A stretch of 63,424 nucleotides of DNA, the filler included, from Kipferlia bialata (Eukaryota): NCBI GenBank assembly GCA_003568945.1. It is 4 parts of 4 records of this genome, joined end to end, with 100 filler letters (N's around TTAATTAATTAA, not from the genome) between each part and the next. Parts side by side here need not be neighbours in the genome. Positions count along the whole stretch, not along the records: positions 1 to 15,787 come from BDIP01000667.1; positions 15,888 to 31,667 come from BDIP01000668.1; positions 31,768 to 47,547 come from BDIP01000669.1; positions 47,648 to 63,424 come from BDIP01000670.1. One strand, given 5' to 3'. The notes below the pieces were generated by a model, which was not told where the DNA came from, made no database searches, and was given only the letters and a program-made list of their open reading frames with translations. The translations under genes and the position numbers were made by a program. Of this stretch, positions 38 to 62,900 are shown piece after piece. Numbering within the stretch: the stretch's first letter is position 1; the number at the start of each line of letters is the position of its first letter.

Positions 38-1741
38 GTTCATCAGAAAGGCATTTATGACTGAGCCCAGCGAGGTATGACCTATTGTATTCGTATATAT
101 TCTACTGTACGTATGGAATGGTCTCTTTACTGTTATTACCGCAACATACAGTGCACCCTTGTCTCACCCCCAGCCCTCCTTCAACCAGCAGAGCTTCGAC
201 CTGGCACTCGGCAAGAAGGTGGGGGCATGTGTATACACCTGTTGATATATGGCGTCATTCTGCCTGGAAGGATGCTTGTCACTATTTGTGCACACCCTCA
301 CCCTTAGGACTATGTCTCTGTCAATGTATTCTTTTGAGCATACTATACTGTATACTTTCCTTACCATATTGCCTTGACTAGAGGCCTGTCTATCTCCTCA
401 CCCCCAGGACTATGGCTCTGTCAGTGTATTAATTTGAACATATAATGAAATATACTTGCCAAATATACTTTCATCACCATATTGTTGACTAGAGGCCTGT
501 ATACCTCCTCACCCGTAGGACTATGGCTCTGTCAATGTATTAATTTGAACATATAATGAAATATACTTGCCTCACCGTATTGCGTTGACTTGAGGCTTGT
601 ATCCCTCCTCACCCAGGACTATGGCTCTGTCAATGTCTCGTGTCATGTACCTGTGCCACTCACTAATGGGTCCAACCCGGCAGTGGATGTGAGGTATACA
701 TTCTTATACAGACACACGTGTATATAGGTTTGCATAAGTATATATACCGATAGTGGACGTGGGGCGGATGTGTATGTATTTATGTGATGTTTCATGTGTG
801 TTTCTCTTTCTCCTCTCTCCCTCTCCCTGACCCCTAGGATTGACAACACCCAGTCCTATGTGCCCATTACAGGGGCCAAGGTCCAGATATTCAGACACAC
901 GGTGCTCAAGAGCGAGGGGCTGCAGGTTGGTAGTTAGTGGCCACTCTCAGTTGGGATATTCATCTAATAGTGTGTACAGTGATACATATGCTATACACCT
1001 CTACCCCCCAGGTGATGTGGTCCAGGATGCTGGGCAGTGTCAACATGCACAGGGGGTCCATAGCTAGTGGAGAGACACACGAGGGTATGTAAGAGAGCTT
1101 GTCAGTATACTGATACAGCTAGCTGTGCTTTCTCTCTCTCTACTCCCCCTCTCTGCCTCACCCCCCAGAGCGTGTGTACATCCCTGTCAAGAGGCAGTCC
1201 CAGCTCAAGCCCACGTGCAACACCAGCTACATACACAACACATACCAGGTATGGACAGGAATAACACTATATATGCTCTCTCTCTCTCTCTCTCTGTGTA
1301 TGTCTCCATCGTGTCTCTCTCTCCCTCCCCCCTCACCCCCAGATTGTGGTCACCTCCACCTCCAAGGGCATAGACCCAGTCACACTCCAGTGCCCAGCTA
1401 CCGTGGAGGTATGGTATATATATATATATGAGGTTTGGGGTGCATAGTTTGGGTATTGTATTGTATGTTGTATATTGTATTTATGTATTGTCATTGTGCC
1501 CAGCCACCAACGGGGGTACAAGCATGTGCTCTTATATATATATATACTTATATATTATATATCTCCCTCTATCCCACACCCACCCCAGGCCGAGATCCCC
1601 GACATGGTGCAGTATATATATATATTTATATTTATATATATGTATATACTGTATATAGATAGAGGATGTCCCACCCCAGGCCGAGATCCCCGACATGGTG
1701 CAGTACAGACCCAACGTCAAGATAGACAGTGAGGTAGGGTC

Positions 1742-1776
<35 letters not shown>

Positions 1777-3004
1777 CCCCAGGACAAGTTCCCTTTCGTA
1801 GACTACAGAGGCACCGTCAAGATCGACGGTACGGAGCCGTTTACCTCTCAGTCTGCCTCTCCCTCTCTTGCTGACTACGGTATCCTCGCACACCCTCTAT
1901 CCTCACTGTCAGATGTCCCCATCGCCTTCCCCACCGCTGCCAAGTCCACCAGCCTCTCCCCCATACTCACCTTTGAGGCAAAGAAGCTAGGTACATTGGA
2001 TAATATACATACCAGGTACATTGTATAATAGAGTGTCGTTGTTTGTATCATGCTCTGGTGGTGTATTCCAGATTCCTCCCTTCCTCCTTCTGCAATACAT
2101 CTCTCATCAGGTCTCTCTCCCTCACCTGATATATATATGGGTGTTGTATTCTTCTTTGTGTGTGTAGTCTCACCCCCCAGGTGGCAAGGCCCCCTTTAGA
2201 CGGTGGCAGACCAGGGTGTTTGGCCTGTTCCAGTGGAGCATCAGGTATATATATATATATCTCTCTCTCACTGTATCTAATTGACTATAGTATACTCACC
2301 TCAAGTGTATATTTCTAACTTTTTATGTATATATATGTTCATGTGTCTCATCCCAGGTGGTACCTGAGTGAGAAGGACCTTGCTGCCTCACTCTATTATC
2401 CCTCTCTACCCGTCTCTATAATTGTCTAGTATATTCATACATGTGTATTCATATATACTATCTAATGCCAGGTGGTACCTGAGTGAGAAGGACCTAGCTG
2501 CCAACAAGCAGCAGTACATGGTGCTACTAGACCAGATCAGGGACATCAAGGTATGCAGATACAGACCTATATACTTATGTACCTATGTAGAGAGAGAGAG
2601 AGAGAAACTTCAACTGATAAATGACGCAGAGTGGAGTACTCCGCGTCGTCTATTGCTCCTACTACATCTCTCTCTTCAGTCTACCCCTCACCCCCAGCCC
2701 TGTAGTGTCGAGTGCAAGGCAGCCCCATTCGGCCTCGTCATCGCGTACGTCCTCTCTTCTCTCTCTCTCTCTAGCCACCGTAGTATTACATTCTCAATAT
2801 TTTTCTTAATATGACACTATGTGAAGGTATCGGTCGTTATCTTCCTCTGTATATAGCCATGTATACATTCATATGGGTGTGAACATGTATATACCCCCCT
2901 CATTCCCAGCACGGACCGGTCCACTGTGGAGGGAGGCTCAGAGAAGACATACTCAATTGGGTTTGGCAACAGAGAGCTCAGGTGAGGCCTCTTCACCCCA
3001 TGTC

Positions 3005-3056
<52 letters not shown>

Positions 3057-3453
3057 GCCTCACCCCAGAGATGACTGTCTGCAGGCTGTCAAGGAGGCCA
3101 TACTGGCGGCAAGGTATGTATGGATGTATACATACGTGTCCTCTAGTGACACTTTGGGCAAAGTGGACGTTGATTCCGGCTATATAAATATGCAACACAT
3201 ACAATACACTACGTATTGAATATAATCTCCCCCCTCACCCCTCTGACCCCCCAGGCTATGTGAGGACGGAGAGGAGGGCGACGAGGGCGACTCTACAGCC
3301 GACAAGCAGTACGTGTCATTGGGTATCTCTCTCTCTCTCTGCATGTCACTCTCTCTCTCTCTTGCACGGCTCCATATGTGTATTGTCTACGCCTAGTCCC
3401 TTACCTCTAGGGAGACAGTCAACGACATTATGGATGACAGCGAGACAGAGTAG
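38..3453 (+). CDS. Arrestin C-domain + PH-domain protein (multi-exon, 5' truncated at contig start)
   Basis: Manual splicing gives VDVRIDNTQSYVPITGAKVQIFRHTVLKS...IASGETHEERVYIPVKRQSQLKPTCNTSYIHNTYQIVV (arrestin-C pattern). It continues KKLGGKAPFRRWQTRVFGLFQWSIRWYLSEKD...LLDQIRDIK...RDDCLQAVKEAI (PH pattern), then an acidic tail with TAG at 3451-3453. Confidence 0.7.
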
Positions 3454-9794: not shown

Positions 9795-9826
9795 AGATAA
9801 CAAGAGACAGTCTCGGATTGGGTGGA

Positions 9827-15728: not shown

Positions 15729-15737
15729 ACGACACTC

Positions 15738-19327: not shown

Positions 19328-22300
19328 TCACACAATGGCCAATGCCCCTACAGCGTTGGGAGTAAGTGCAGGTGGATTCATCACCTGCTCTGGGATGGCA
19401 TGTACATTGGCTTGGGGGGCATCAGTGAGGTTGGGTGCGGAGGAGGCACGACGCATAGCTGCATCCTTCTTGCACCTACGTAGTGACCTGACCATCAGAA
19501 AACAATATCGAAGTGGACTCACAAGAAGTTGTGTCAAAGTACCATAAAGCATGTCCTGATAGGGGAGATATACTGACATGACTAGTGACAATGATAACAC
19601 ATCACCTTGAGACAGTGGTTGCAACTAGCTCCAGAAGCGCTTGGAACCCGAACAGCGATAGTAACAGGAGCACGACATCTCCCATGAGGGACCAAGGGGC
19701 TAGGTTGTGGAAGGTGACCTGGGATACCTGTACCAGTTAGATACGGGAAGCACTCTTAGTTAGAGTCTCTAACCAGTCTAACCAGATGTGATTCCTCACC
19801 TGGCTGCTAACAGTATGCCTGATTGACACGGACAAGTCACTAGATTCATTGACACTGAGGTCATGACAAATAGTCCCTTCCCTGGAGTTACTAACTCCAG
19901 GAGTTTGGGACATGTATAGACTTGTGCAGTATAATATAATACATATTGCAGAAATACATGTACACGCAACACACCCAATTATTGACGAGCTAGTAGAAGC
20001 ATAGTACACACGCTCCGACTGGCATGCTCCAAACTGACCATCCTGTGTTGCTGGGTCCTGACACCATCCTATTGATAAGTACAATGGGCAACAGCATTAT
20101 CTTGTGGCCCAATATATAGAAACACATAGATACCTGGGACGTGCATGATGTGGCTCTCAACGTTGAAGTGCTGTCTGCCACAAAGCACACTGGCGGGTTG
20201 GGTCTGCTCGTAGCTCAGAGATTCTTGTTTTGTGATCGCTTGGCCTTGCGTGTGAGGACTATAGGAACTCTCATTGTGAAAATTGGGCTTGTGCATATGC
20301 AGTATACTTGCCTTGGAACAGGCCCTCACACAGCCCACCAAAGTATACGCCGCTGTTCTGGGAGCATACATGGGAAAACGGACGGGGTCCAGACTCGGAC
20401 CCTGACGCAACAACGAGGGGGATTGGAGCTACTGTATAAGACATGAGTCGTGCTTCATCCCAAAGCCCCTGAAGTGAGGAAGCGTATGAAGGTAGTGTAT
20501 CAATGCAATCTACAATGTCTAGCGTTAGAGGAAGTATATCGAAAGAATCTGCAATATCTTTGATCAATATAGCCTTCTCACCGACATTGTGTCTGGGTCC
20601 TGGCGACCGTTGTCGTCGAAGGTCACGGTGGTGAAGGGGTTGAGAGGAACATCACTAGTGGTGAGAGACAGATTCGTAAGAATACATGTTGTTGGGATCC
20701 GGGTGTAACAAATGTATGTGGCATTGATAGCTTCAAGGCAGCCGTATATATCGTGCTGTCGGTCACCCCTTACCCGAGTGCAGATCTTGCCGCAGCCATA
20801 ATGTCTGCAGCCTCCTCCTGCTGAGATGGGGTAAAGTGCGACGCCGGGAACGCTAGGCCGTCTAGCCAGCCAACTCCAACTGTCCAATAGCCAATGTCCT
20901 GAGAATTAGTATGTCGGGCGCATGATGTGAAGCGACCTTTCAAAACTGATAGTACACGCAATATTTACAGATAAGAACGTTACAAGACCCTGGATGCAAG
21001 TGTATACCTGGGTGCTCCCCTTGATCATTGGCTGTGGCTCGGCGTTGTCGGTTTGTAGGTACTCATTGAATGTACCAGGATACACATAAGTCCTGGTTGT
21101 TCAGTGTGAGATGAATACTTGGGGATCCAGCGTTTAGATGAATACAATAGACTTCGCTTAGTAAACATCAGGCAGTAGATAATAGAATTCACAATGTGTC
21201 ACATATACTATTCAACGAACCTCACGGCACTTGTTCCCGTGCCAAAGTTTGGGTATTGCTCACTTGGTGTCATTGAAACCTGAAGGTGGGAGGGAGACAT
21301 TGGTGACTGCCGTATCACATAGTGGAGTGACGAAAAGCACAATGTGTAGATATTGTAAGGCCGTTCCTCGAAGGTCATGTCGTCGAAGAAGCCAGGGTAG
21401 CCAAATGCCCAGGCAAGGGAGATGATACTGCACGTGAGTACATGTTCTTAGCAAAGGGATTACCAGTACCATGCATATATCCTACCTGATATGATGATAG
21501 TTCGATGCTTCGTCCTGGTAACAGCCATAACTGAGCAAGGGCTTGTAGATGGCTTCACTGTGGTAAGTTATGCTTTAGCTACATGGTACACACTACGAAG
21601 ATGTATTTCGACTCGATAGTCGAGGTTGTAATATGTCATTACTAATGACGCACTCTTCGTAGCCAGTGAGGTCCTCGAACATTGTGCTGCAGGGCTGGCC
21701 ACCTGGAGTGGGATAATACATCTGATTAGTTGTATATGCATATTTCTCTACAGAGAGGCGGTCGACGATGCCTCTTCCGACTACTATCAACTGGACTTGA
21801 CAATAGTGTCACACTATTATAGTGTGGTGCTCCCCACCTACAAATATGCAGTTGTCTGTCTGGATACCAAGGGATCCGGATGCCCTGATGTTATCATAAC
21901 ATTGTAATGTCAGCTATCTGTAAGACTCCCAGCTAGACCTGACTAAGTATATACTTACCGTAATTGTGCCGCTGTGGTAGGCAAGCTGGTACCGGGGATG
22001 ATGTTCTGCAGCAGACAGGTTCCAGCGCTTGTCGAGAACAATAGTCTGGGATATAGTGCATAAGAACTTTGGAGCCGATTTATGTATTGATTCCAAATGT
22101 ATTAGCAACTATTAGCAACTATTAGCAACTATTAGCAACAATATAGTGTATTGCTAGTAGTAGTACTACTAGTGCTAGCCTACTACACTATACGGTATCA
22201 CCTCAGCTTGTCCGTGTATGGCATTGCGAGGAAGGTCGGATCAGAAGGAACACACGTGGCCCCCCAGTCGTGACCTGAGAAGAGGCAGAGACATGTACTC

Positions 22301-24626
22301 TGTATATATATTATGTGACATGATATATAGTGACACTGACTGGAAAAGGTGTGATACCACATAGCTACCTGATGTGACGTCAACAACGTACAAGTTGTCT
22401 CTGTCAGAGATGGCGTAATCTGAGGCGTGAGGAGGGACTGAGGGAGAACCATCAATCATTTCACTGTATGAAGTGAGTCAATACATTTGATGGTTCAGAA
22501 CGAATATTTGATAATGTCGTATATATCCGTACTCAGGTAGGTCCTAGGACCGGACTCCAGAGAGCTGTATGGGATGGTCTGCACGTCCCTCTGACGAAGG
22601 TAGGGAGGCTGGTCAGCCGTCATCTCTGAGGTCAGACATCGCACCAGATACACTGAATATGTGTCTCGGAGCAAGGAACCTCTTTACTTAGAGTCCTGTG
22701 AGTGACAAAAGTCCACTATAACTACGCAATCACAAAACACTGGTACGCAATAGGGCACGGATAGCTCCCCAGAGCGGTGTCTCTTACTTAGAAGTCGAAA
22801 TATGATATTGAAGTAGATACATGTTACCTGAGAACAGGTCGTCAGGAAACTGGATTGGCGCATTGACGTCATGTAAGCATGCGTACAGTGTCCACACTAA
22901 CATGAAGGTACCCACAATGTAGAGCATCCCAGATACAAGACCACCTGAAGTGAAACGGGACAGATACCGTATATGTCACAGATGCAGAGGGTGTATCTAG
23001 GATTGGTTCTGGCATATGGATACCTACAACCGTCCCCCGATACTCGTTGTCTATGTACCCGTCTCCAGACTTACGACGACGGACGTCGACTTTCCCCAAA
23101 ACCTTGAGTAAGGTGAGTGAGCACTCCATATAATATAGATCATACTTAGTTGCAGACTATTTCCAAAGAACTAACACTATAGCTAACACATATATACATT
23201 ACCTTTGTGACGTTGGTCATCGACTTCTGGGATATGTCTAGGAACCGCAAGAAACGGCGCATGTTGCTGCGGGTGAGTACTAGGCCTCAGTTTTAATGGG
23301 ACTGTGAGTCAGTCCACTGGGTCACATCTGTATCCATCGGTATATCTCGAATATACATGTGCGTAGTAACAGTGACCATCTCTGTTTGACTACCTGCGAG
23401 TTCGTGTGTACTTAGGATAGTGGGAGGCGAACACCACTACTCCTGGGGAAATGAGAAGGAGACAAAGGTAGGTCAGTGCATCTGTTGAGACATGTGTTAG
23501 GTACATTTAGGGTGTGTCATATACCTACAAAGACCAGCAGGACCCCATACATTACCAAGGCAGAGTACACATTGGCTCTGCAGGTGAGAGTCGAGTGGAA
23601 TACGGTGGTTCTGACTGAGATACATGTATATATATGTGTATATAGTGAATTGTAATACTAATTGCACATATATATATATATTATATGTATAAGCATATAT
23701 ATATATAATATATATATGCATATATAATATGAATTATAATACTATTCACATCAGTAAATATACTATATATATAACATATATAGCACTGTAGTGAATCTAC
23801 CTGGATGAAGGGTCATACACTGTGTCCCCGAAGAAGGAGTGTATCCATGCCGAGGGATAGAGACCGGACATCACCACCTGTGGAGAGAGATAAATGACAG
23901 TATATCGGCTAATGAAAGAGAAATACTTGTCCACATGTCTTAGAGCTGCCAGAGTTAGGGCTAAAGTATGACTGTCACAGTGACAGTGTCACTAAAGGAG
24001 TGGAGAAGGTCACATAGACCCCCAGAGACACTGAATGACATTCAAATGCATTGCTTGATTTGTACCTGAAGGGCTCGGGTGCTGGTTGTGAAGGAGCGCT
24101 CCTGGTCGACGCCAGTGGGAGATAGATAGCTGAGGGGGAATGCCCCGTAGAGGTCGGGTCGAGAGGCTGGACAGACTATGTGAGAATATACTGGTACTGA
24201 TAATACAGTCTCCACGGTTGATATCTAAATATCTGACACCATACTAGATTTTGCACCATTGGCGCGTACATGAGTATATATAGTATAGAGTATGTACAAG
24301 GACACATAGAAAGTACAGGGCCTATACTATAGGCCCACCTAGTGACTCTGTGTCGATGAAGTCAGGGGTGTCGAAACATGACGCGAATGCTGTACCGTCT
24401 CCCCATATCTGGCGTCAGTGTTCAAAGAAGTCTCCCAGAGCAGTGGTGTGGTGTCACTGACCTCATCGTGTATAGGAGGAGATGACAATGTCCTGTCTGT
24501 TGACTGAGAGCACCCAAATGCGGGAGTCAGTGTGCTCTCTCCGCAAGTGTCAGAGTCCTTTGGGGGAGTGCTTCCCATTGCCAGACTAAGCCCCACAAGC
24601 AGGAACAGCCACCATCCATCTTGCAT
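19328..24626 (-). CDS. Large multi-exon hypothetical protein, possibly secreted or membrane-bound (model incomplete)
   Basis: A chain of minus-strand exons with GT/AG ends, e.g. NMRRFLRFLDISQKSMTNVTK|VLGKVDVRRRKSG.... It has a signal-peptide-like MQDGWWLFLLVGLSLA and a last exon ending ...GALAIV*. Confidence 0.45.
22100..22139. repeat. 10-nt tandem repeat (ATTAGCAACT)x4
   Basis: Seen directly in the sequence. Confidence 0.9.
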
Positions 24627-25273
24627 TCTGAGCGTGTAGAGAGGGGTGTCCAACATACCTGTACCCATACTCATAGGGGTCAGCAGCACTGACTCTACAA
24701 ATGTGATCAAGGTCAACAGTTCAACAGTGACACATGACAGTGAACATCTGTCTTTACAGTGATGTCAACAGTGAAACATAGGAGGTAGATGACTAGTGAA
24801 TTCCAGAAGGTTTGGTCCAAACCTAGAACCTAGCCCCTTCATTCAAACACTACTTTGTGTCTGAAGCGCCAAACGCACCTGTCCTCTGGCATCTCATAGG
24901 ATACTGGATAGGTACACTATCATCTGTAAGAGAGAGAGATAAGGGGGGGGGGGGGGGGTTACTCTGTATACTCTCTGTCTGTGTCATGACCCTGAGCAAT
25001 CATTGTCTTTCAGTTTACCTTGTCTTACTATTAACTGCTTATGTACGCAGAGTATGATACTATCAGTGCTAGGACCGACGAGTGCTCTAGGTGTCCTAGT
25101 AGTGAGTCACTACTAGTGAGACTCATCAATTTCTATATAGTATTGTAGTGAGACTTACCAAGTGAGATATGCCCAGAGCATTGTATGTGGTATATATGTA
25201 GTATATGTAATATGTAGTATATATAAGCTTAGTATATACTATCAGAGCTAGGACCAAGTGTTCTTCTTACACA

Positions 25274-31767: not shown

Positions 31768-31885
31768 TTATAAAAACGGCCCAAAATCCCCCCCCCCCCC
31801 CCCATCTGTATTCTTATGCTAACTATACTTACACCAGGGCATAGGTAGGCACCCCCTGCCTGTCCCTGTGCCTGTTTCCCCACAG

Positions 31886-32556: not shown

Positions 32557-32587
<31 letters not shown>

Positions 32588-34368: not shown

Positions 34369-34403
<35 letters not shown>

Positions 34404-43048: not shown

Positions 43049-43863
43049 GTGGTTGCGTGTGGGGGTGGGAAGGACACGACTCTGAGGGCAGATAGGGGAA
43101 GGACATATGGTGACAAGTGGGGTCTTCGCCTGGCTCCGCCCCTGCTGTCCAGTCTCTCTCTCGGTGGCCCCTGGCTCTTCACCCAGCGACCTGGCGCAAC
43201 AGTATACTACCGTGCCACTCCCTGTGGAAGGAGGGATTGGGTGTGTGTTCGGGTCAACACCTAGAGAGACTGCATGCTTGTCATGGTGTCGAGACTAGTC
43301 AGGATTATTGTGGGTCATAAATTTGAGTCATCCAACTTACTCGAAGATTAAAACCGTTAGTGCCAGTACTCTTCGCCAGTACTCTCTTAAAGTACCACTA
43401 CTCAGTACTATGCCTGAGTACTTGTATCCAGACATGGTGGGGAGTACTTCACCAAAGTACTATCGTGCTTCAAGGAGGCCTGCCGATGGCGCTCTCTCTA
43501 CCCACAGCAGACAAGCGACACAGGGACACTAAGTTGACTTGCCTTCCCAGTCTGTTTCAGTTCACCCCTAGTGGTGTACACAGATAGGCCCTGATGACAA
43601 GTAAGTACCTCTGTTTTCTGTACTTCTTGATTGTGGTTGCAGGCGCTTAGGGTTGTTATCCCTATGATACATACATACATGTTGTCACAGTGTGAAAGGT
43701 GTATCTCACTCTTGTAGGTGTCCCTCTCATCCCAGGCCCTTCATTCCCTAAGGAACCTAAGGCCCAGATGCTTAGACGTCGCTACCAGGAGATGAGAGAG
43801 GCCACCAAGGCAGCTGGAGGTATTGTCACTGGTTGCTCTCTCTCACGCTCTCTCTACCTCTCC

Positions 43864-43895
<32 letters not shown>

Positions 43896-44973
43896 TCATG
43901 AGAAGGGCCATCAATGCAGATGGAGGTATATGGTGATTGGTCCCCCCCCCCCACTCTCTCTCTTCTCCCCTTCTCCACCCTTCATTTAGCATATCTCATC
44001 TCCAGGCCAGTACTCACACAGCGTCTCTCTCTCTCTCTCTCCCCACTTTGTATATATATCTTTGTATTCAATATACATCTCATCTCCAGGCCAAGTACTC
44101 ACCCAGCGTGACAGATGGAACACCCCTGCACACAGGTACAGGGGCATCTCTCCTCCGTCTCTCTCTCTCTCCCTCTCCATCCATCCCCCTGGTTATTCAT
44201 TAGTTATGACTCATAACATATGAGTTATAACCTCTTGCCTCACTCCTCCTCGACTCGTTGCCACCCCACACTCACCCCGCCGCACCCACTGCTGGATCTC
44301 TCTCTCTCTCTCCCCCTAGCATATACTCACCCAGCCGCCTCCTCATCATCTCCCGTATCTGCATCAACCAGCATGTGACATCGCCCAAGAAGGAGGGGCC
44401 AACGGCACTGAGGGTATGTATATATATATACTAAATATATATATATTATATACATATATGTGTATATATGCAGTGACTGTATCGTTTAAGAAGGAGGGGC
44501 CATCTGCGCTGAGGGTATGTGTATGCATATTATACTAAATATATATACCTATATATGTGAATGTATACTGTGAATATAACGCCCAAGAAGGTTGTGTATA
44601 TACTATATGTATATATATACTATACCCAGTATAAATATACAAATATATGTGTATATATTAAGTAAATATATTGCCCAAGAAGCAGGGCCACCTGCACTAA
44701 AGGTATGGCTATAAATAATCACACTGTATACAATATATATACCTATACATAAATTGTGATTATATATTAAACAATATACAATAATATATACTAAGAAGGA
44801 GGGCCCATCAGCACTGAGGGGGTGTCTGTACACTATTCATGTCAGGGGTCCCCCCCCCTACTACCACTCTCACAATATCCTTACCCACCTTGTGATATGT
44901 CCTCTTGAAGGCTACTCATTCTCTCTCCCTCCCCTTTCCCTCACTCCTCAGGCTGTGATGGGCTACCCCCCAA

Positions 44974-45012
<39 letters not shown>

Positions 45013-45638
45013 AGTGACCCTCTCCTACTAATTCCTCAGGCTGTGATGGGCTATCCCCCCATGTGTCACAAGACAGTGAGATACGTGCACAGAAAGCTAG
45101 CAGGAGTGACTACCCCAGGCGGTGAGTGTATTGATATATATATACATACACATACACACACACACATATATATATATATAATAATTAGTGTATACATGCG
45201 TAGGTTCATGACTGCACACATATGACTTATGGACTCATTTCTCACCTCAGGCACTGGCAGCAACACCCTTCTCTATTCCTATAATTGTGCATACTATCCA
45301 CACCTGTGAATGTGTACTCGGGGTTCTTATACCACTTACAGGCTCTGACAAACGTATGGATTATCTACTCATATCTCACCTTAGGCTCTGGCAACAACAA
45401 CGACAACCGCCTCTCCCTGGCATCAGAGGCCCTCAGATGGATAACGGATGTGGCAAGGATGGTACGTTTACTAATCTTCTCAATGATAGAGACTCTACGA
45501 TAACTCTTTACAGCACAGTATCCCTTCTGACCCCCAGACAAGCCCAAGGGACCTAGCGGTGTGTGAGATGGTCAGAGAGAGCCTATTGAGGTGTATGTTT
45601 CCTTGTCTACCACAATATTTCTTTCCCTCTCTCCCTCT

Positions 45639-45674
<36 letters not shown>

Positions 45675-47547
45675 CCTCCGCCTCTCACCCCAGGCCATGT
45701 GGTAGGCAGTATCTGAGGGGTGAGGCCGCAGCACTGCACGACACCATCATGATATGGGCCATGTACGTACATAACATGATGTACACACACACTCTCTCTC
45801 TGTCTCTTTCCAATGTTTCCACTCCCTCTTACTCCCAGTCTCTGATACCACTGCTACTATCAAGTACGTTCCTAACGTGTGCATACTCTCCTTACCTATT
45901 TCTATTCTCTTTGTCTTACCCCCAGCCTCTGTGACCACTGCTACTATTGTATAGTTATAACATGTACCTTCTCTCTATATACGTATCTCTCTACCTTAAT
46001 TCTCTGTATCGTTAACCCCAGCGTCTGTGACCACTGCTACTACTATGACCCTGCTTCCTCTCTGTCTGGGCCACTTGGGGAGAGGGTGTGCACACTGACA
46101 GAGAGGGGGGAGGCAGCACTGAGGTATGTATATTTGCATTTGTATATATATAGCAGAGGTCGCTCTCTATGTATATATATGTCCAACCCCTTCCCAACTT
46201 CCATCTACATTCGTGCCCCTCTACCCATATACACACAGATACATATATTCATGTATACATATATGCTTCAGCTCTGGCTCTCTCCATTGACCCCCAGCTC
46301 CCTCCGTGCCCCTCTGCCCTCTGACCCCCACTCTGTCCCTGACCTATCTGACCTATCCCCTGACACCAATAACGGTACTGATACCTCTACCCCTGTGCGT
46401 CTCAGACGAGTCCGTCTCAGACGTGTCCTTCTGTCTGGCCTATGGGCAGAGGGTGCAGGGGGTGAGGCAGGCATTGGTGGACATCAACTGGTATGTGGGA
46501 GTGTATTATGGAGTTGAGTATAATGTATATATGGGCAGTGAGTGAGGTACTCTCACGGGCCATATCGTGTTATCAACTGGTATGGTCAGTGTCTGGTGGA
46601 TGAGATATGTGCTATCTCTCTCTCTATCCATTACCCTCACTCCTACATGGTGACACTTCTCTTATTATATATAGTTACGCCATGGTTATTTCTGTCCCTG
46701 TACTCACCTCAGCTGTGTGCCGCCACCTCTTTTCTTTACAATTATGCCATGACTCTCTCATTCTGTTTCTCATCCTCCAGCTCCATGCCGCTGCCTGCCT
46801 TGGCAGACTAGACATGCAGAAGTGTGCATATGCCACAGACACGTGCAACAGAGTAGATGAGGTACATGCAGTATATATATTTAGGTATATACTTAGGTAT
46901 ATATATATATAGGTACATATATACTGTGTTGTCTGACTGCCCCTCTCACTCCTAGTTGAGAGTGCTACTGCACCGCTACTTACCTCTCTGTATGTCTATA
47001 TGTTGTATGTAACGTTACTGTCCCTCTTTTCTACTACTGACATCTAGCTGAGGGTGCTTCTGCACAGGCTGGACACAGCAGACTGGACAACAGACCCCAA
47101 GTGCTACACAGATGCTGCAAGGTACATAGCTATACATCTCTCTCCCATTGGAGTATCTCTTTCCATACTTGTATTTATAACTCTGCTCTCCTCTCATCTT
47201 AGGGCACTGGACCTGGCCTTAGGCAGGGGGGTCTCCCCTGCCTCTGCCTCTGCACCCCCTATACCAGTAGGAGTGACACTCACAGAGCACTACCACACAG
47301 GGAGTGGCTCTACTAAGCCCTCCTTCCCACCGGCACAGAGTCCCTCCCCCAGGGACACCAACCCTCCCTCCATCACTCCTCCTGCGTCCACCCCCCCCTC
47401 TCTCCCCGAGCCCTTCTTCCCTATTCACAACGCCACGCCTGCCTCAGGTACTGGAGCCTTCCTCGGATTATGTGGTGTCCCTCCCATTCCAGTACCCCCT
47501 CCCATCCCTCCCGACGAGGTCTGCTGCCCCATACGAGAGCACCCCAC
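43049..47547 (+). CDS. Hypothetical multi-exon protein (start uncertain, 3' truncated), divergent from the previous gene
   Basis: Exon chain IYSPSRLLIISRICINQ...|AVMGYPPMCHK...|SGNNNDNRLSLASEALRW...|LHAAACLGRLD...|LRVLLHRLDTADW... Confidence 0.55.
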
Positions 47548-48458: not shown

Positions 48459-51400
48459 ATGCACAAGGTACCTACTAATGTGTAAACACATGTATACACT
48501 CAAATCACGCAGTCAGCATCTGTATTTCCCACGTCTCAGTTGGTACCCCACTGGATAGCTACCCTTGTGTTCATGCAATGCCTATCTCCTCTCAAAGTAT
48601 ATATGTTGTGTCCTCTGGTACCTTCTTGAGTCTTGTCCTGACCCCAGGCCTACCTGTCTGCATGTATATCGGCACAGACCAGGCCCATTAAGGTACACGT
48701 GTGTATATGGATACATGAGTGTGTATGGAGTGATGTGTGGTTGACCACCAATTGAGCTCTCTCATATCATATGACTCATATATGACAGAGCTGGCCACCC
48801 TCATCTCTCTCCCAATTTCCACACATCACTATCACGCAGCCAAGCCCCTCTACGAATATATGGCTTGATTCCAGAGTTTTGGCATGAATATACTTCCCCC
48901 CCCCCCCCATTCATAGAAGTTTGTACTCTTAGTATCTAGGTAGGTGTTGGTCTCTCTTCTCCCTGACCCAAGGCCCTGGTTGCCCACCTCAGAGAGTTCG
49001 AGAACACAGGTACAGCTCAATTATTCAATCCAGAGTGTGTATACCTTCTCTACATTGGGAGTAGTCCTTTGCTCTTGAGTAGCCTCCAGTGTGTACTCAT
49101 AAATGTATGGGTATCTATGTATGTATTATTCTATCTCTCTGTGCTCTAAGTACATATAATGTGTCCCTCTGTCTCCCCAGGCACCGATCTGACCACCCTC
49201 ACTTCTCTGTATGACTCTCTTACACTATATGATAATATATACTTCTATATAATCCTCTATCCCTCATCCTAGGCACCGATCTGACCACCCTCGACTTCTC
49301 TGCCTTTGGCCAGACCCTGGGGTCACTGGGGGTACTGCCCATATGCGACATACTCAGGTATATATGTAGTATATGTATATATAGTATGTGTGTATGTATA
49401 GCACAGGTCTCAGTGTCAGTTTCATATGCGACATACTCAGGTGGGTGTGTATAGTACTTGTGGGAGGTACATGACTCAGTTCCATAACCTTCCCTCTCTC
49501 TTTCTCCCTATCTCTCCTATTCTCCCACTCTCCCTCTCCCTCCAGACAGTGCAGCACCCTGACCACTCTGTATATATATATTATATGTATAGTTCATGTC
49601 TTGCTATCTCTCTCTCTCTCTCCCATACTCTCTCCTAACCCTCCAGGCAGTGCAGCACCCTGACCACCCTGTATATATACATTATATGTATAGCTAATGC
49701 CTTACTGTATCTCTCTCTCTCTCTCTTACTCTCTCCTAACCCTTCCAGACAGTGTAGCACCCTGACCACCCTGTGTCTCAAGGGACAGAGGATAGCAGAC
49801 GACGGGTGCAAGAGCCTAGGTACAACTCTCGTGTGTTTCTACATGGACCTACTATCAACTCCACAAAATGTATATTCTCACCCCAGTCTCTGCCCTCCTT
49901 GCCTCCCCCTCTGTCATCAAGAGGCTTGACCTCTCCCACTGTCTACTGGGTGGCATGGCAGGCAAGGCACTCGGGGCATATCTGTCAGCCGAGGTGGGTG
50001 GGGAAGTTGTTTCTCTTTCCATCTCGAACAATGTGACTACAGTTTCACCTGAGTGTTATACTGTTGTATTTGTCTTTCACCCCCCCCCCACCCCCAGGCC
50101 TGTGCGTGCACTGAGCTGAAGCTGTCCAACAACCCACTCGGAGAGGGTACGTTGATGGGGGAACTATTGGATATGTCTGTGTAGTATACCAGATATACAT
50201 ACCCCCCCCCCCCCCACCCCCACCCCCAGGCACCCTGTATATCCTCTCCCCCCTTTATATATGTATAGCATAGTGGTATATATTTCCCCCACCCCCAGGC
50301 ACCCTGTCTGTCCTGTCTGCCCTGGGGTCCAACTCCAGTCTGGGTCTGCTGGAGATGAGGCAGATAGGCGGGATCACTAAGGTGGGTCACTAGCCTCAAT
50401 CACACGTATATATACATATACTGATAATTCAACTGTATGTTCTCCTACAGAATGGGCAGATGTGTGTGTATCTTGCTCTTGCCCCCCCCCCCCCTTTGCT
50501 TACCCCCCAGGACGTGTGGGGTGTGCTGGGTACTCTGCATACGATGTGCATATGTCTTACTATATGCTTATCCCCCCTTACCCTCTAGGACGTGTGGGGT
50601 GTGCTGGGCGCCGCCCTCCTTGGCAACCACACCCTGACAGGGCTCGACATGAGCCAGAACCCACTCGGGGTGACACAGGTATTGAGCGATAGATCTTGCT
50701 ACATTATTCTGTAACTATTACCCCCCACCCCCAGTCCTCCATGTCGGGCTGGGTCCAGTTCTGTGAGGGTCTTGGGGCCAACTCGGGCCTGCAGAGCATC
50801 AGAATGGAGTCATGCGATATCACACAGGTATGGATTGAGTATATATATAGATATTAAACTTAAAGAGTGCTTGTATATAACGGTTGTGTATACAGACCAT
50901 TAGGATTGAGTCGAGTCATTATTCGTGTTGGATTTTTGTATTCGTCGTTCTACCTTCTTCTCCCCCCCCCCCCTTACCCCCAGCGCTGTGGCCTTGTGCT
51001 GCTTGATGTGCTGCCTGCCAACCACACCCTGGTGGAGATGGGTCTAGAATATAACAGAGTGGCCGAGAAGAGTGTCAAGGCAATGCAGAGGCTGATGCAC
51101 AGGTACAGAGGCAATGCATATACCATAATACATATATACATACATATGCAGAGGCTGATGCACAGGTGTGGATGGATGTGGATTATCGCGACAGAAGTAT
51201 ATGCATGAGGTGCATGTGCATGTGTGTATGTGTAATTGGTATTTGTCTATGTTACCCTCACCCCAGGAACCGCCAGGCCTCTCTTGCCAGACGTGCTCTG
51301 ATACGGACAGAGAGGGAGAGGGAGAGGGGGAGAGAGAGAGGCAGGGAGATGGGTGAGGGCGATGGCGATATGTACCAGCCTCTAACCCAGCCCCCACCCT

Positions 51401-53913
51401 CCTCCCCTATGCACACCCTGTCACACAACATGTCACAGGGTCACGGGCATTCGGGTAGTGGCATGTACATGGAAGATGGCATGTCCCCTGCTGTGGTGGG
51501 GCATGGCAACACACCCCTGCAGGGTAGTGGGGTATCCACTGCACTGTCACTGTCACCCACCAGGGGGAGGGGCGGGTCACCCCAGGTGTGTACAGATATA
51601 TATAGTATCACTATGATACTGTCCACTGAGTTGTGTGTACGTACTCTATACCCCTGACCCCTAGACCCGTCTCATGGCATTGGGCCAGGCCCCCCCAGAC
51701 AGAGAGGCAGCATCCTCTAGATTCATAGGCCTGCTCCCAAACAAGGTCAGTGTATTATATTGCTTGACACACTATATATGTCCACATTCTATCTCACTAT
51801 CTCTCTATATCTGCTCCCGAACAAGGTCAGGGTATCCAGAATATCCACATATACCCCCCCTCTTGATGGTATACTCTCAATGGTATGCCTCTCACCCCTC
51901 AGGTCCAGATTGTTGAGAAGGCCGACTCTCTCCTCAGGGGGTACAGGTTTGAGTATGCTGGAGTGCTACCCGCCATGCTCCAACTAGCAAGTAACGAGAT
52001 CAGGTACAAATATCTCAGCGTATTTCCTGAATCACCCTATATGTATAGGCCAGCAACGAGATCAGGTGCGGTGTTACTCATGTATTCGTGTATTCTATGT
52101 CTCACTCCCCCCTCCTCACCCCCCAGGTCCCTTCTCCTCAGACTGACTGACTCGGAGGCACAGGGGGGGGCAGCGGCAGCTAGGTACGAATGCAGTACAT
52201 GTATGAATGCAGTGTTCATTGGTTTTGTATCGCCACCTACTCTCACCCCCCCAGGGCCCATGACCTTGAGGTCCAACTCCATCAGTCCACAGTGTCCCTC
52301 ACACACCTCAAGGTATGCGGTGGAGGGTGGTGTACAGTGGATATGGACTCAGAATCCCCCCCCCCCCTCACCCCCCAGGAGACCCTGACCAACCTGTCCC
52401 ACACAAACAGACAGCTCAGCCAGCAGGTATTGAGATGGTCTTATATACAAGGGATATAAATGTATGTGTGTGTATTGAGACAGCTCCGTCAGCAGGTGGT
52501 GGGGGAGGAATGTACCTATACAGCTACTGATTCACACCCTAACCCCCAGGTTGCCGTTGATGCCGGCCAGAGGCAGAGTGCCGAGGAGAGGGTGACAGAC
52601 CTGGAGAGAGAGAGACAGGACGTCAGGAGGGCAAGGGAGGAGAGAGACAGGGCGGGGAGAGAGCTCAGGCAGCTCAGACAGGTGGGGGAGTGTCATATCT
52701 CTACAGCTATTCATATTTCTATCACCTCACCCCCCAGGCCCACCAGGACCTGACCGAGTCCTATGCGGCCCAGTCCGATGCCATGCAGGGGGTCAAGAGA
52801 CAGAACCTGCAGCTCAAGAGGTACGGATGTTGACTAGTGATTCTTGGTCTTAATCCACTATAGGGCTGACCCCAGGCTCCTCAAGACCAACTCGACTGAC
52901 TCCGACAAGACTGTGCAGTCACTGCAGGGCATGCTCACAGAGGCACAGAGGGTGAGAGACAGATGTGGTACAATGTATATACACTATACTATACTATATA
53001 CCTACAGTGTACAGGGGATGCTCACAGAGGCTCAGAGGGTGAGGAGGGGTACATTCATATGTGTAGAAACATGGACCGCTGGCACTTGGTGCATGTATAC
53101 ATGTATTGCCATCACAAGCACATCATTCTGATGCCCATACTTACCATGTACATGCAATGTACCAATGTATCTCACCCCCAGGCCGTATCCTCCCGGGACA
53201 GACAGGTGTCTGAGCTGCAGGAGAGACTGGCCTACCAGCAGGAGAGGATGGAGCAGAGAGTGGCTCAGGTCAAGGTGGGGAGAGTCGGTGTATTGTGTGT
53301 AGAATATAGTATATACTATATTCTCTATCTGCTTCGTGATACCCGTCCAGCTCATGTCCTCACCTGTCAGGATCTGCAGCGCCAGCTGGATGCCGCCACC
53401 GCTGTCACACCCTCAGACCCATACGGATATCAGGAGAGGGAAGGGGAGAGGGAGAGGGAGAGAGAGAGTTCCTATAGCCATGAGGGGTATGAGCATGGGT
53501 CGTCAGGTGACCAGTGGGCCAGAAGGGCATCCAATGCAAGTCACAGAGAGGGAGAGAGAGAGAGAGAGGTGGAGAGCGAGAGACAGTCCAGGAGGCGCTC
53601 CTCCGTTCACTCCTCCCCCTCCCCCTCCATCCCAAAGTACAGCGTCAATCTAAGTGAGGATAGACCCAGGGAGAACAGACCCTCCGGTCTGCACCAGTCC
53701 CTTGACCACTCGAGACTGGACGGGTCGGTGACTGAGCCTGAGCCTGACTACCAACCCCTCCCCACACCCCACTCATACCCCTCTGACCCCTTATCCAATG
53801 AGGGGGAGAGAGAGACAGGCCCCATCAGTGTAGCTGCCCTCTCTAGCATACCCTTCCAGGGGGAGGGGGAGAGAGAAGGTGTGTCAAGGAGCATCATGAG
53901 TGGAGATAGCTAG
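48459..53913 (+). CDS. RNI-like leucine-rich-repeat protein with C-terminal coiled coil (LRRC45/CEP78-like architecture; start uncertain)
   Basis: LRRs read LTTLCLKGQRIADDGCKSL, IKRLDLSHCLLG, CTELKLSNNPLG, NHTLTGLDMSQNPLGD and NHTLVEMGLEYNRV. Coiled-coil exons follow (ERVTDLERERQDVRRAREERDR). Confidence 0.8.
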
Positions 53914-56954: not shown

Positions 56955-59900
56955 TCAGTACTGCACTGCGCCTCTGTCCATCCATGCTAATGGGTCAGTC
57001 TGGGCTGATATGAAGGACCGGGCCCAGGCACTCTGCCTGCCCTGGGTGTCCTCGGACTGGGGCCTGGGGGGAGAGAGAGGGGGGGTTACAACAGAAGCAT
57101 GATAGACTGACGATGGAACTACTGACTACTGCCCCATACCTGTGTGTCATGGCACAGTGAGGGGGACGCAGGCCAAACCTCACACAGAACGGCAGACAAG
57201 ACTGAGGGTGAGTATGGTGACACAGGAGTGAGCAAGGCTACCAACAACTAGTGGTAACAACTAGTCACTCCTCACCTTGGGCAGCACCCCCTCCACCTCT
57301 GGATGGACCCCTCTGTCCAGAGTATGTCTGGCCATGTAACAGAAGACCCTGCCCAGCTGCCGCATCTCAGCGGGGGTGCACACAATGTTGCTAAGCGGTG
57401 AGGGGGAACAGGGTGTAGAGTTTGTAGTCAGAATGGGCAACCGTACCACATCTCCTTCCCCTTTGCATGTGTCTTCAGCCTCTGCAGTACTCTAGTCATG
57501 CCCCCCTTTGGCAGTGTGGCGTTGAGGCACATGGTGACATCAAGTACACAGGAGGAGGCAGTGCGGTAACACCCATGGACAATGGTGAAGCCCCGGATGG
57601 CACCTGGGGGTAGTATAGGTTACATATCACATAGCCATATTATATATAGATACTCATCAAATATCACTGTACCGCTGGGGTGTCTGAATGAGAACACCGG
57701 TGTCCCCTTGCTGACATATGAGGCATACAGGGTCTGGACGGTGTCGGCAACCTGGGGGTTAGGGTTCCTTCCCACACTGTATACTATTTGACTACTATAT
57801 ACCCCTCCCCCACCTCCCCCAGTGTCCTCATGGCTGCTGTGTTGTCAGGCATGCCCAGACACTGGACAAGACGGGCCTGGGGGGTGAGGCATAGGGTGGG
57901 TATCTAGTGTACATATGTATACAGTATCCCCACACCCTGCTGTCTATGGGCCCCAGCAGGTGTCTGACCATGGCAGGTGGTCTAGTCCGGATGGTGATGT
58001 CGGACCACCCACCCAGGAAGGACTGGGGTCAGGAAGCATGTGGGAATAGTGGCATGCAATGTATTACTCATCATTCCCCCACTATATACCATACACACAC
58101 TACACCATCCATACCTGAGCCCCGTTGTCCATGGAGAGTGTCTCCATCAGGGCATCCTCAGCCAGAGTGACATGCCCATACCCGATGGGGGCTGGGACTA
58201 GGTATGGGGCACGGCACACACGCACACGCACATAGCGGCTGGTGCGGGCCACCTGTATCCTGGGTGTGAGGAGTGGTGAGGTATTACAGAATAGTCCTTG
58301 AGTGTATATGTGCACATCCCCCCGTACTTGTGCGAGGCCATGTCGACTGGGACTGGCAGGGTGACCACCCCTAGGGGACAGTCTCCATACAGAATACACA
58401 CAGAGTACACATCAGTGTACCCCTGTCCTAGTGACCCCCTGTCCATAGGCACCACCCCTCTCTCTATGTACTCATCGAAGGTGCCTGGCAGGGTGTAGCA
58501 CCCATGCCCTGCCTTGGGGTAGGGGGTGACACGGGGCTTGACACTCTTGTCTGACAGGTAGCTGGGGGGTCAGTCACTGATACACACATGACCTGGCATA
58601 TACGTATGAATCACAGGCTATACCTCTGGGAGAGTACAGTGGGTATGGTGACCTCAATGGTGACCTCAAGACCCCTCTTGGTGTCTCTGTGCCATGACAG
58701 AGACCGTACGCCATACGGTGCAACATCAGTACTGTCAGAATCCGCACTTGGACAGGGCCTGGGTACATCACATGTGTGTACAGTGACGGAGGAAGGGGGG
58801 ACAGACACATGGGGGCCTGGAGGTAAAGAGAGCGGGTGACTGTACACTCATGTTGGATACACTGCAAACTCCATACACACATATATAGTTATATGAATAT
58901 ACACATGTACATAGGTATGTATATACATATGTACACACCATGTACAGGTCCACACACTGGGTCCTCGGCAGGGCGGGACTTCTTGAGCAGCATGGCCTAC
59001 GGGTGAGAGAGTGGATATGCAATTGACATCTAGTCATCCCCTGTACCATACCGTGACTGGGTCCACAGGTACAGGCCCCAACCCATGCACTGTATATGTG
59101 TCAGTGTCAGCTGCACTGAGGGTGGGGTCGGTGGGCTGGACAGGGCCCAGGAGCAGAGACTCGTTGTACCTGGGGGGAGACTACAGTATGTTGTACAGAT
59201 CATCATGAAGCATATCGTCATAGGACTTGAGGGGAGATTGAACACAGTGCATGTAATCATCATAGCAGCATGATATATGGTCCCTACCTGTCCTCCCCCA
59301 CCAGCCTACCCTGCACAGTGGGTGTCATGTGCTGGAACACACTGCGGATGGTCTGGTACTGAGAGTCCCTGTTACGCAGGCGCATCTGCCTGGGGGTAGA
59401 ACAAAGTGTTGGTAGAGAGATAGTATACTCTCTCTATATATACTTATGCATACGTACATCCCGGGTGTGATTCCCTCCCCCCTCCGCAGAGCCTGTAGGG
59501 TGGGCACATATGCACTGGATGTGATGTCTATGCCGTGGCAGACCAGTCTCCTGGGGACCAGACTGACACCACTCAGCAGACAGGGGGAGAGGGTGGGTGT
59601 GTGTGTAGACATGGTGTGCGGGTGGGGGGGTCTGGTCACCCTGACCTTCAGAGTGTACTGGGGGCCACACGTCCTGGTGGTTAGGGTGATGACACACGAA
59701 CAAAAGGTATTCCACGAGATTTCTGAGATACAACAACGAGGCATTGGGTAACACACCTTGTGTCGACCCCCATCTGGGTCAGGGTGGTCAATATGTAGGG
59801 CACGGTCAGGCAGTTGTACTCATTGAGGGAGGAGAAGAGAGGGTCAGAGGCGCCACGGGGGGCCTGGGATTAGGAGAAGAGACAAAGCCTACCATACTAC

Positions 59901-62900
59901 ACTATACTAAGAACTTCATACCATGCGGCACAAACCATCCCACATTCCTCCCAGTGCCTGTACGATCAGGGGCCGGATACAAATACTGAAGATACTTATG
60001 TCTACCCAACTATACTGTATAGTACAGTATTACCTGCCCACCCAGCGCCTGTATGAACTGTGGTATGGGTGACACAGGGTGGGTCAGGTACAGACTGACG
60101 TCCCTGCCCCCTAGATGCACCCTTCCAGAGGATGTACCCACAACCACCCCCGTGCCACAGGGCCTGTCACCCCCAAGGGTGAGGGTGGGTGTTACAAGGG
60201 GTTGGGGGACAGCTATGTAGTGGGGGGCTGGGGGTGAGTGCCAACCAATACTGAGGGTTACTACTATAGTACACATCCCCACCTGTGAGTGCCCCAGGTG
60301 AGCGTGCCCTGAACAGGCCCCTCCTGCACCCCACTGCCACACACGCACAGAAGGCAGAGAGAGACGGTATGGCACGGCTGGGGTGGGGGGGGATACTCAG
60401 CAACCAGAAGGATAGCACATCCAACATCCTTGCATATATGTGCCCTACCCTGTTGTTGTGGACCCTGATGGGTGGCAGTGGTGCAACACACCCAGTAGAC
60501 ACTGGTGCAGATGGGACTCAGGGGACCCAGGGGGGGACTGGGGTGGGGGAGGTAAACGAAAGTGAACTTGCGGATGAACAATGACATGTATGGTGTGTAC
60601 ACCCACCCTATCGACGCTGGGTGCTGGATACGGTGTGGGTGTCCTTGTGAATGACAGAACTGTGTACCCGCTGATGACTGCAGCACCCACAGTGCCCTAG
60701 GGGGTGAGGGTGAGGTAGGGGTGGTATAGTGCATGTACATGCATGAACACTGATAAGATATAGGACAATAGAATACTGCAGCTTTCACAGTGCCCTGGGT
60801 GAGAGGCATGAACAGATAGACTCAGATGTGGAAGACACACAGTGCAGGATCCAAATACTAAGTGGATACACACTATGGCAAAACCCTCTTCCAGGATCTA
60901 CTACCTTAGCCCTTGGGTCCCTGGATAGAGCCGCAGAGGGCAGGAGAGAGAACCCCAGCATCTCACTCCCCCTGTCCCTCTCCTCCTCCTCCCCGGCCAG
61001 TCTGACACCGAACAGGTGGGGCAGGTCACGCACCCTGGGGGTGGGGGGGGGTAAGACAGGGAGTATATCTAAATCTCGCGGACACACTCATACTCAACTG
61101 ACTCCATAGAGAGTGAGTTATAGTGCACCCGTACCTGACCCCCGTGCACTGTGTGACATACTCCTGGACAGAGGCCGTCTCATCCCTGGGGGTTAGAGCC
61201 CTGAGGCAACCTTCATACATACACTGATGATGAAGTGCTCTTTAAGCATGACACATATGTCTACACACCTATGGAAGAACACCGCTGACAGGACCGACAC
61301 CCCAGGTGTTCTGAGGAAGGCAGGGGCCACCACTAGCAGTGGAAGCATACCCACATAGTCACCCAGGTTGGACACAGAGATGTAGTCATACACAAAGGGG
61401 GAGGGGGAGGGGGAGGGGGAGGGGGGGGGCATCCTCAGCCTGGGTCTCTCCCTTGTGGTCTGTAGCTGTGTCTGTGTGTGTGTCTGCATATCCATGCATT
61501 CTAGGACTGAGACACCGCTCCATCAGTATGGGCAGACAGTCCCCACCCAGCAGTGTGACCGTGACCCTCCTGCTAGACATGGCCCTGTCAAAGGCACGCA
61601 TCCACTGGCCAAACACACTCTGGGGGTGAGGGGTTACGATATAGGTGCAATCAACCATTGATATTGATAGATGTACACGGAGAGAGAGACGTCCTACCCA
61701 CCTCACACTCGAGGTCAGATCTGTACCCAGCGGCCTTGGAGCTGATCTCATACCTGGGTCAGGGAGGGAGTGGCGGTGGATACAATTAATGCCATATTAT
61801 GCACACAGTATGTATACACTGACCCCACCCTGTTGTGGGCTGCGTGCCATAGTGTGCTGTCCACTGGGGTATGGCACAGGGGTCGGACAGACACACTCTG
61901 GAGGGTGAGACGGGGAGGGATAGAGGAGACTATATACGAGACAATGAGACCAAGGGGATCTCTTCGCTATACACCCACACCTGTAGTCACATGCCCTGTA
62001 CATTGTCGGGTTGGCCACTGCAGTAGAGGGTGCTGCCCCTGAGTATGACCCATAGACCATGTAGTCAAGCTGTCTGGCAGGTGAGGCACAGGGGGTGGAA
62101 GGACAATAGATATATATATACGAATATGACGGCCCTATATACACTATACCACCCACCTCTCCAGCGTATCCCTCATGAACACTATGGCACCCGTGTGCTC
62201 CATCTTCTGGCGGCACACCTACTGTAAGGGCTATACATATATATATACCTGTGGGTAGCAATGGGTAAACAGTGACACATCATACTCCATACACACTTGC
62301 GTGATACTCCACCTGTCTGGCCTGGACTGTCATGGATTTGACACTCACTACTAATACATGTATATACACATAGACATATAAATATATATACCCCTACCTG
62401 TCTGGCCTGTGCCGTCAGTGCCTTCATACCCTTGGTGGACACTATGGGCACATGCGAAGAGGCACCGGTGTCACTGAGGGGTGAGGGGGATTGAGATAGA
62501 CGAACATAAATGGTCGAACTCAGACCAGTCACTACCCAACACATACAATGAGCACTCACCCCATCCCCCTCCCCATGCATCTGATGTGGAGGTCAAGTCG
62601 GTTCCTTGCACAACGCTGGGAATCAGGCTATAGCCGTAATTTAAGACAAGTATCAATACAAATACATATACAAGCCAACCTGCATGAATGGTACTGGTTC
62701 GCAATCTGCCCAGAGGGATAGCACGGGGAGGAGCTGGGTGCAGGTGCCCCTGGAAGTCAGGGTATGCAGTACTATGCACAGACACACATTATTGGACCCC
62801 ACCACCAGTATCTGTCTAGTCTGTAGCGTCGATTACCACAAAATTGTGTGCAAATATTTCAATACAATAAATACTACCACCCTACCTGTCCAGTCTGTAG

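Follow-up and report, generated by a model that had tools for sequence, protein, structure and literature searches.

Repeats that span a splice junction are already known, and tandem genomic duplication of AGGT has reportedly given rise to new introns. The elements described here, which we call echoes, share with the latter a tandem duplication around a splice signal, but they lengthen existing introns instead. An echo is a copy of an adjacent exon end that lies within the neighbouring intron. Echoes were analysed in a 63,424-nucleotide stretch of the genome of the single-celled eukaryote Kipferlia bialata (GCA_003568945.1), referred to below as the window, which consists of four contigs of about 15.8 kb each joined by N spacers; it is eukaryotic and intron-dense, and all counts refer to it alone. 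Among the described systems, the 37-bp variable number tandem repeat (VNTR) in intron 7 of human F7 also spans a splice junction (PMC1557585). Its unit likewise crosses the exon-intron border, and its duplicate donors are silent, the most upstream one being used. However, the F7 VNTR is a single locus with near-identical units, whereas in Kipferlia 40 of 127 introns are concerned, on both the donor and the acceptor sides, and the units are not alike over their whole length: the intron parts are near-saturated, while the exon part carries a signature of coding constraint.

Aborted homologous recombination (HR) followed by microhomology or Pol theta joining (PMC12309385) is similar in that allelic synthesis stops prematurely and its end is joined back, so that a head-to-tail copy remains. 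Those duplications come from repair-deficient mouse cells and worms, and the cell work had a sister chromatid as template; in Kipferlia, by comparison, the template would have been a homologue of diverged sequence, and fixed products are frequent in a wild genome. In hypervariable Schizophyllum commune, divergent genotypes recombine through the homology of their exons, which selection conserves, and crossovers concentrate there (PMC4209137); that study concerns crossover position, its abstract has no mention of exon-end duplications, and hypervariability is presumed in Kipferlia. Exon-like sequence in neighbouring introns is also typical of tandem exon duplication and mutually exclusive exons (PMC9013439), but these are whole exons that are often spliced, while echoes are part-exons of 12-63 nt with one splice site, skipped where tested. 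By analogy, echoes may work like a junction-spanning minisatellite made by aborted HR where exons carry the homology. What appears to be new here is the frequency together with the strong coding signature: a literature search by title and abstract start, with subscription papers outside its scope, found no description of both, and such repeats are absent from the covered part of the K. bialata genome description (PMC5874029).

Echoes are real head-to-tail duplications of about 100 nt across one splice site, the exon-like part of which has diverged under coding constraint. Eleven hand-curated gene models with 127 introns were used, some genes of the window being left out or modelled in part. 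Each cognate exon end was aligned in its intron (score of at least 22); the iterated search gave 69 hits, and removal of six unanchored hits with a score below 26 left 63 echoes (32 donor and 31 acceptor), distributed over 40 introns on all four contigs. An earlier, sequence-only reading had claimed exon-end copies in more than 20 introns of the four contigs, which this count bears out, and all 15 echo positions that it named were recovered within about 10 nt. Cognate matches inside the own intron were obtained for 20/127 donor ends and 29/127 acceptor ends, against 0.68 and 0.97 expected from non-adjacent introns; wrong-side controls, which used a shorter 25-nt query (116 donors, 116 acceptors), gave 0/116 and 2/116. 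The polarity is constant, with donor echoes downstream of the used donor and acceptor echoes upstream of the used acceptor, and 55 of the 63 extend to the splice site. GT/AG is retained in 26/29 and 26/26 echoes, the search query itself containing those letters. An unbiased search for near-repeats less than 700 nt apart returned 63 pairs, in most of which an exon end recurs, together with its splice site, in the adjoining intron. Echo length ranges from 12 to 63 nt (median 26), one to three echoes are counted per site, and the head-to-tail repeat unit has a median of 100 nt. The intron grows by about 99 nt per echo (median length 92, 207, 270, 396 and 487 nt for 0, 1, 2, 3 and 4 echoes), and echo units make up 26% of the modelled intron bases. 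Their density is uneven among genes (8/9 introns in g3, 0/13 in g9; P=1e-5), which probably reflects gene-level hot and cold regions. Echoes are also scarce in all four minus-strand models (3/49 introns versus 37/78 elsewhere).

The exon-like parts differ from their exons in a codon-structured manner. The 148 unique exon-echo differences are distributed 34/28/86 by codon position, and 79 are synonymous against 38.6 expected under neutrality. The earlier description of these differences as mainly synonymous is therefore modest by count and strong per site (pS 0.196, pN 0.052); its five codon examples are correct, with an additional ATG>GTG change in the 33316/33417 pair. The ratio of 0-fold to 4-fold divergence (d0/d4) is 0.24 (site-bootstrap 95% confidence interval 0.15-0.40; P(>=0.5)=0.003), stays at 0.22-0.27 when any single gene is left out, and reaches 1.7 and 3.3 in frame-shifted controls. 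That reading had proposed a codon-position (dN/dS) test with a null ratio of 1. Run window-wide, the test gives a ratio that is not near 1, but this null is too lenient: the proper one is a dead in-place duplicate beside a living, constrained exon, for which about 0.5 is expected. This stricter null is rejected too, since it predicts 59 synonymous changes where 79 are observed (P=4e-4). In-place dead duplicates simulated through the same alignment and threshold gave d0/d4 of 0.54 and 0.60 in two settings, with 0/150 as low as 0.24 in each, while 0.26 resulted when divergence was coding on both sides and the echo lost its function for the last 25% of its branch. The amino-acid replacements are milder than expected at random (BLOSUM62 mean -0.16 versus -0.76, P=0.002), and only 3/127 changed codons give stops. 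In g6, whose frame is independently annotated, 11/15 differences are synonymous. Echo-private changes are synonymous in 22/55 cases (P=0.025); farther echoes show a weaker signal (pN/pS 0.34, P=0.09 against the dead-versus-living null). Both neutral decay and the dead in-place duplicate null are thus rejected, and the claim that echoes were once coding is upheld: while they diverged from the exon, coding constraint acted on them most of the time. Between GC and AT, synonymous changes are balanced (29:28) and non-synonymous ones shifted towards AT (33:16), and differences seem slightly more frequent nearer the splice site (78/680) than nearer the far end (55/655). CpG mutation was considered as a source of the silent bias and discarded, as only 9/78 synonymous changes are of CpG type. 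The doubtful echo at 28310 was omitted from most of these later tests.

The genes and echoes concerned are the following (frames marked ORF were taken from open reading frame continuity).

174..3452, + strand: gene g1, 15 exons modelled (ORF)
306, 406, 517, 1587, 2355, + strand: acceptor echoes of g1
25275..31388, + strand: gene g2, 18 exons, membrane-protein-like; its first six junctions match a spliced contig of 1902 nt
26695, 27297, 27428, 28233, 29021, 29158, 29640, 29743, 29864 and, doubtful, 28310, + strand: donor echoes of g2
28321, 28390, 28706, 29423, 30492, 31091, + strand: acceptor echoes of g2
26695..26734, + strand: g2 donor echo (38 nt, then GT) whose exon ends at 26644, with GTG>GTC, CTC>CTG and GCG>GTG; skipped in the spliced contig
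29021..29206, + strand: two g2 donor echoes whose exon ends at 28963, each with CTG/CTC/AAC where the exon has CTA/CTT/AAT
25154-25178 and 25266-25290, + strand: repeat pair at the 5' end of g2, outside the 63
31838..34890, + strand: gene g3, 10 exons (ORF)
31986, 32099, 32199, 33050, 33184, 34560, 34664, 34749, + strand: donor echoes of g3
32527, 32750, 33316, 33653, 33985, 34338, + strand: acceptor echoes of g3
31881..32249, + strand: g3 four-copy site (exon end plus three donor echoes), 25 nt identical in all four
34560..34766, + strand: three g3 donor echoes that match the exon end without a difference over 35, 34 and 18 nt
35330..37265, + strand: gene g4, 5 exons modelled (ORF); acceptor echoes at 36105 and 36935, donor echoes at 36428 and 36517
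43718..47447, + strand: gene g5, 12 exons modelled (ORF)
43898, 44488, 44670, 44793, + strand: donor echoes of g5
44004, 44950, 45249, 45841, 45924, 46954, + strand: acceptor echoes of g5
48459..53913, + strand: gene g6, KIPB_003475, 792 aa, with weak leucine-rich repeat and coiled-coil Pfam hits below cut-off
49179, 49544, 49645, 50228, 50509, + strand: acceptor echoes of g6
49423, 51146, 51811, 52049, 52478, 53012, + strand: donor echoes of g6
57140..63373, - strand: gene g8, 32 exons modelled, echo-poor (3/31 introns) (ORF)
62812-62827 and 62311-62332, - strand: donor echoes of g8
60775-60796, - strand: acceptor echo of g8
21838..24627, - strand: gene g9, 14 exons modelled, an internal negative comparison

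The relations among copies of one site indicate how the arrays grew. The far breakpoint is common to echoes of the same site (10/17 pairs within 2 nt, null P<5e-5), their mean length difference is 3.7 versus 12.8 nt, and their spacer ends are alike (0.70 versus 0.55, P=3e-6). Shared breakpoints and spacer ends therefore point to a single founding junction for each array, with later growth and exchange; they do not support, as it was worded, the earlier proposal of a separate break behind every stranded exon end. Differences between echoes are also coding-biased (17/13/41 by position; 35/71 synonymous, pN/pS 0.32, P=5e-5). At 31881-32249, the exon end and its three echoes encode PDTPQHLV, PNTPPHLI, PNTPQHIV and PDTPPHIV, in codon-structured variants. 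All three possible 2:2 groupings of these four copies are present, and therefore the copies appear mosaic, since a single tree would need repeated changes.

The intron sides follow a different course. Identity is 0.91 in the exon part, while the intron sides average 0.62 against 0.54 for unrelated introns, and 20/55 exceed the 95th percentile of unrelated pairs. The sequence-only reading had called these introns non-alignable, which is not wholly so, although they are far more diverged than the exon parts; to judge from their sequence, they are homologous yet near saturation. They are more diverged than a divergence of about 20% predicts (0.76-0.80), and their identity is uncorrelated with exon-part divergence (rho -0.07): in the 24 echoes with at most one mismatch it is still 0.62. 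For instance, at 34560..34766 the intron sides of the two full echoes are only 0.70 and 0.55 alike despite identical exon parts. Few sites, 296-640 and 49544/49645 among them, have units that are alike throughout.

With regard to splicing, read evidence covers 25000-27240 (one counted echo) plus two echoes passed by a loose contig end. None of the runs is recorded as RNA; X2 is presumed to be, and the GT..AG joints of its 1902-nt contig show that this contig is spliced, although contigs of this kind hide rare isoforms and rare variants. The contig follows the g2 model through four GT..AG joints and one join without a gap, which leaves out the echo at 26695, and its loose end reaches the exon at 27721, beyond the echoes at 27297 and 27428. 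It thus skips all three counted donor echoes tested and is unbranched, with one version. The g2 model is supported by this contig and by the paralogue g11. A query with one long g6 exon retrieved the 792-aa K. bialata protein KIPB_003475, encoded by one contig; the echo-free 22-exon g6 model translates exactly into it, and its annotation skips all 11 g6 echoes. The intron style of the other three contigs is identical, which suggests the same organism. In these data the whole stretch between first donor and last acceptor is removed as one intron, and no new intron is excised between copies. The first-pass gene predictor called several echoes as micro-exons. On the DNA side, run X1, which may be the source of the window, contains 0.99 of 529 sampled 31-mers over the echo-dense 5.1 kb at 26500-31600. 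Over 25000-27240, four long DNA contigs have depths of 353-439 and differ at 0-1 positions, and depth does not halve at either echo or exon. One X1 DNA contig spans both copies of the 25154/25266 repeat pair; no listed DNA contig reaches from the exon end at 26644 to its echo, low-complexity sequence being skipped there. Major alternative splicing and assembly artefact, the two alternatives named by the sequence-only reading, are both unlikely because the spliced contig skips the tested echoes and the DNA depth is flat.

We consider it probable that the exon-like parts were copied from divergent alleles during recombination, by a founding event and then by unequal exchange. The coding constraint means that the copies once sat in a functional exon, and divergent alleles are the simplest source of several versions; we infer an allele rather than a lost paralogue, no second allele having been seen. 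If the population is highly polymorphic and its TA/CT-rich introns diverge fast, good pairing would be limited to exons. A break repaired from the homologue would copy about 100 nt across the exon end into the intron, where homology is lost, and one echo would be founded when a template switch or end joining of the Pol theta type closes the break; duplications confined to coding sequence would be purged. The echo would then offer a second pairing site for the functional exon end of another allele, and unequal exchange would refresh it with coding-constrained sequence and the intron of that allele, and add units. Such exchange needs no new end-joining and would explain the shared breakpoints, the mosaicism and the foreign intron sides. 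The breakpoints, the coding-biased differences between echoes and one mosaic site are observed; the exchange itself would be the process behind them. Lastly, the outermost sites (first donor, last acceptor) would be used, and the skipped echoes would decay slowly; the skipping is shown for three echoes by the spliced contig and for g6 by annotation. Echoes are probably passive by-products. Either the old or the incoming allele may remain as echo.

DMC1 is reported to tolerate mismatches. The repair machinery of the organism is compatible with the allele-copying part of the earlier proposal: metamonads lack non-homologous end joining (NHEJ), fornicates lack Rad51A and use Dmc1 (PMC8516963), and the K. 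bialata inventory lists PolQ, Spo11, Msh2 and four Dmc1 entries with no Ku or Rad51A (PMC8516963 Supplementary Data 2). The presence of PolQ, Spo11 and Dmc1 without Ku or Rad51A fits a step of one-ended HR and end-joining. The species is reported as probably diploid from k-mer peaks (PMC5874029).

Several observations weigh against an allelic origin. A recombinase would have little length to pair with in echoes of 12-30 nt. The DNA contigs over 25000-27240 contain no substitution variants of a second allele (contigs drop bubbles), the protein cluster of KIPB_003475 has one member, and a metagenome scan gave a single locus (L001), a chance match in a bacterial-type contig; a silent-site allelic diversity of about 20% is presumed, and only one sample is on record. 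The far ends of echoes are slightly more intron-like than simulated in the microhomology test (P~0.03, marginal). The mosaic pattern comes from one four-copy site and could be homoplasy. Private changes of the nearest echo alone are weak evidence (8/18, P=0.04-0.08), the contrast in direction is not significant (Fisher P=0.11), and the reading frames of g1, g3, g4, g5 and g8 come from ORF continuity. Finally, the coding signal is absent in the g1 array at 296-640 and in g4 (d0 8/74, d4 3/17), which resemble ordinary decay, and therefore some echoes are ordinary decayed duplicates.

That same g1 array speaks for the first of the alternatives, in which echoes are in-place (sister-chromatid) tandem duplications, dead at birth, whose silent bias comes from the living exon and whose spacers are scrambled by microsatellite slippage. 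At 306, 406 and 517, three units of about 100 nt precede the exon at 617, with alignable spacers (0.78-0.85) and two non-synonymous differences, which looks like a plain in-place array; moreover, the polarity, the size of the units and the splice dinucleotides that they retain are compatible with any tandem duplication. As a general account it is unlikely: d0/d4 would lie at about 0.5-0.6 and echoes with a common breakpoint would differ neutrally, neither of which agrees with the values given above, and the intron sides of 0.62 beside echoes with at most one mismatch also speak against it.

A template that was a paralogue or homeologue, from an ancient hybrid or genome duplication since lost, and not a segregating allele, would give the identical coding signature, and the window does contain near-identical paralogues (an inverted pair at 13.6-15.7 kb). 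Nevertheless, a site may have as many as four copies, mosaic and all different from one another, which would require several templates, divergence ranges from 0 to more than 20% with no single age, and a second copy of the first g2 exons was not found at 85% likeness in the run contigs, so we regard this origin as improbable.

We give no more credence to indirect selection, by which echoes would at times become the functional exon end through single-strand-annealing collapse or low-level splice-site use. Such selection could account for conservative changes, few stops and retained GT/AG, and 16/19 echo-bearing donors end in AG, which would permit removal in two steps. However, recursive splicing is rejected, as this rate equals that of other donors (80/108, P=0.56), and so are micro-exons: the GT that follows acceptor echoes stands at background (17/26 versus 0.58), and none occurs in the g6 annotation. 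The unbranched spliced contig also skips the tested echoes, and the near-saturated intron sides would be left unexplained. On paper, acceptor echoes with a following GT at 306-536, 1589-1606 and 49546-49670 (+ strand) allow in-frame micro-exons of 18-24 nt.

An artefact in which two haplotypes were written in tandem is very improbable, for although the published assembly is a short-read SPAdes assembly of a probably diploid genome (PMC5874029), X1 may be the source of the window and the 26644 junction is unbridged by a single listed contig, the echoes begin mid-exon beside intron sequence with strict polarity and up to four copies per site, X1 contains nearly all sampled 31-mers, the depth of the DNA contigs is undivided, one contig carries both 25154/25266 copies, and the spliced contig shows a single version.

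Other features of the window deserve mention. By eye from their translations, g11 (17382-19036, + strand) and g2 are paralogues 6 kb apart, and g11 has two modelled introns where g2 has about 13, which suggests wholesale intron loss (a retro-copy) or gain; homologue searches with the long exon of g11 and one g2 exon gave no match. The second g11 intron (18752-18853, + strand) has near-identical sequence at donor and acceptor, a short direct repeat with AG|GT, which would be the signature expected of intron gain by tandem duplication. A divergently oriented, near-identical gene pair with conserved upstream sequence lies at about 13640-14490 (- strand) and 14980-15730 (+ strand); it appears to encode a membrane-anchored Ser/Asp/Val-rich repeat protein, and indels offset the frames. 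At 55423-56290 (- strand) there is a small GTPase-like gene with P-loop and WD..G motifs, which we take to be of Rab/Ras type, with no echoes in three modelled introns and a short repeat near 55320 and 55390 beside it. A long stretch at about 5900-9400 (- strand) looks intron-poor and coding, unlike the remaining window.

Whatever the mechanism, echoes provide dozens of near-perfect decoy splice sites about 100 nt from the real ones, in a gene set with introns of about 90 nt. These are natural test cases for the choice of outermost splice sites, and traps for gene prediction. If the allelic origin is true, a single assembly would yield population-genetic information on past alleles, recombination and selection. 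It would also give a concrete mechanism of intron growth, adding 99 nt per event and accounting for about a quarter of the modelled intron bases, and it would be evidence that a lineage whose repair machinery is unusual has sex or parasex. More tentatively, and a little short of what we would call probable, introns may archive the exon ends of other alleles throughout the K. bialata genome, in tens of thousands of cases, written by a mismatch-tolerant, Dmc1-only, NHEJ-free recombination that pairs only in exons; this would be the main driver of intron length and, read out of one genome of this free-living fornicate, direct sequence evidence of genetic exchange and very high diversity.

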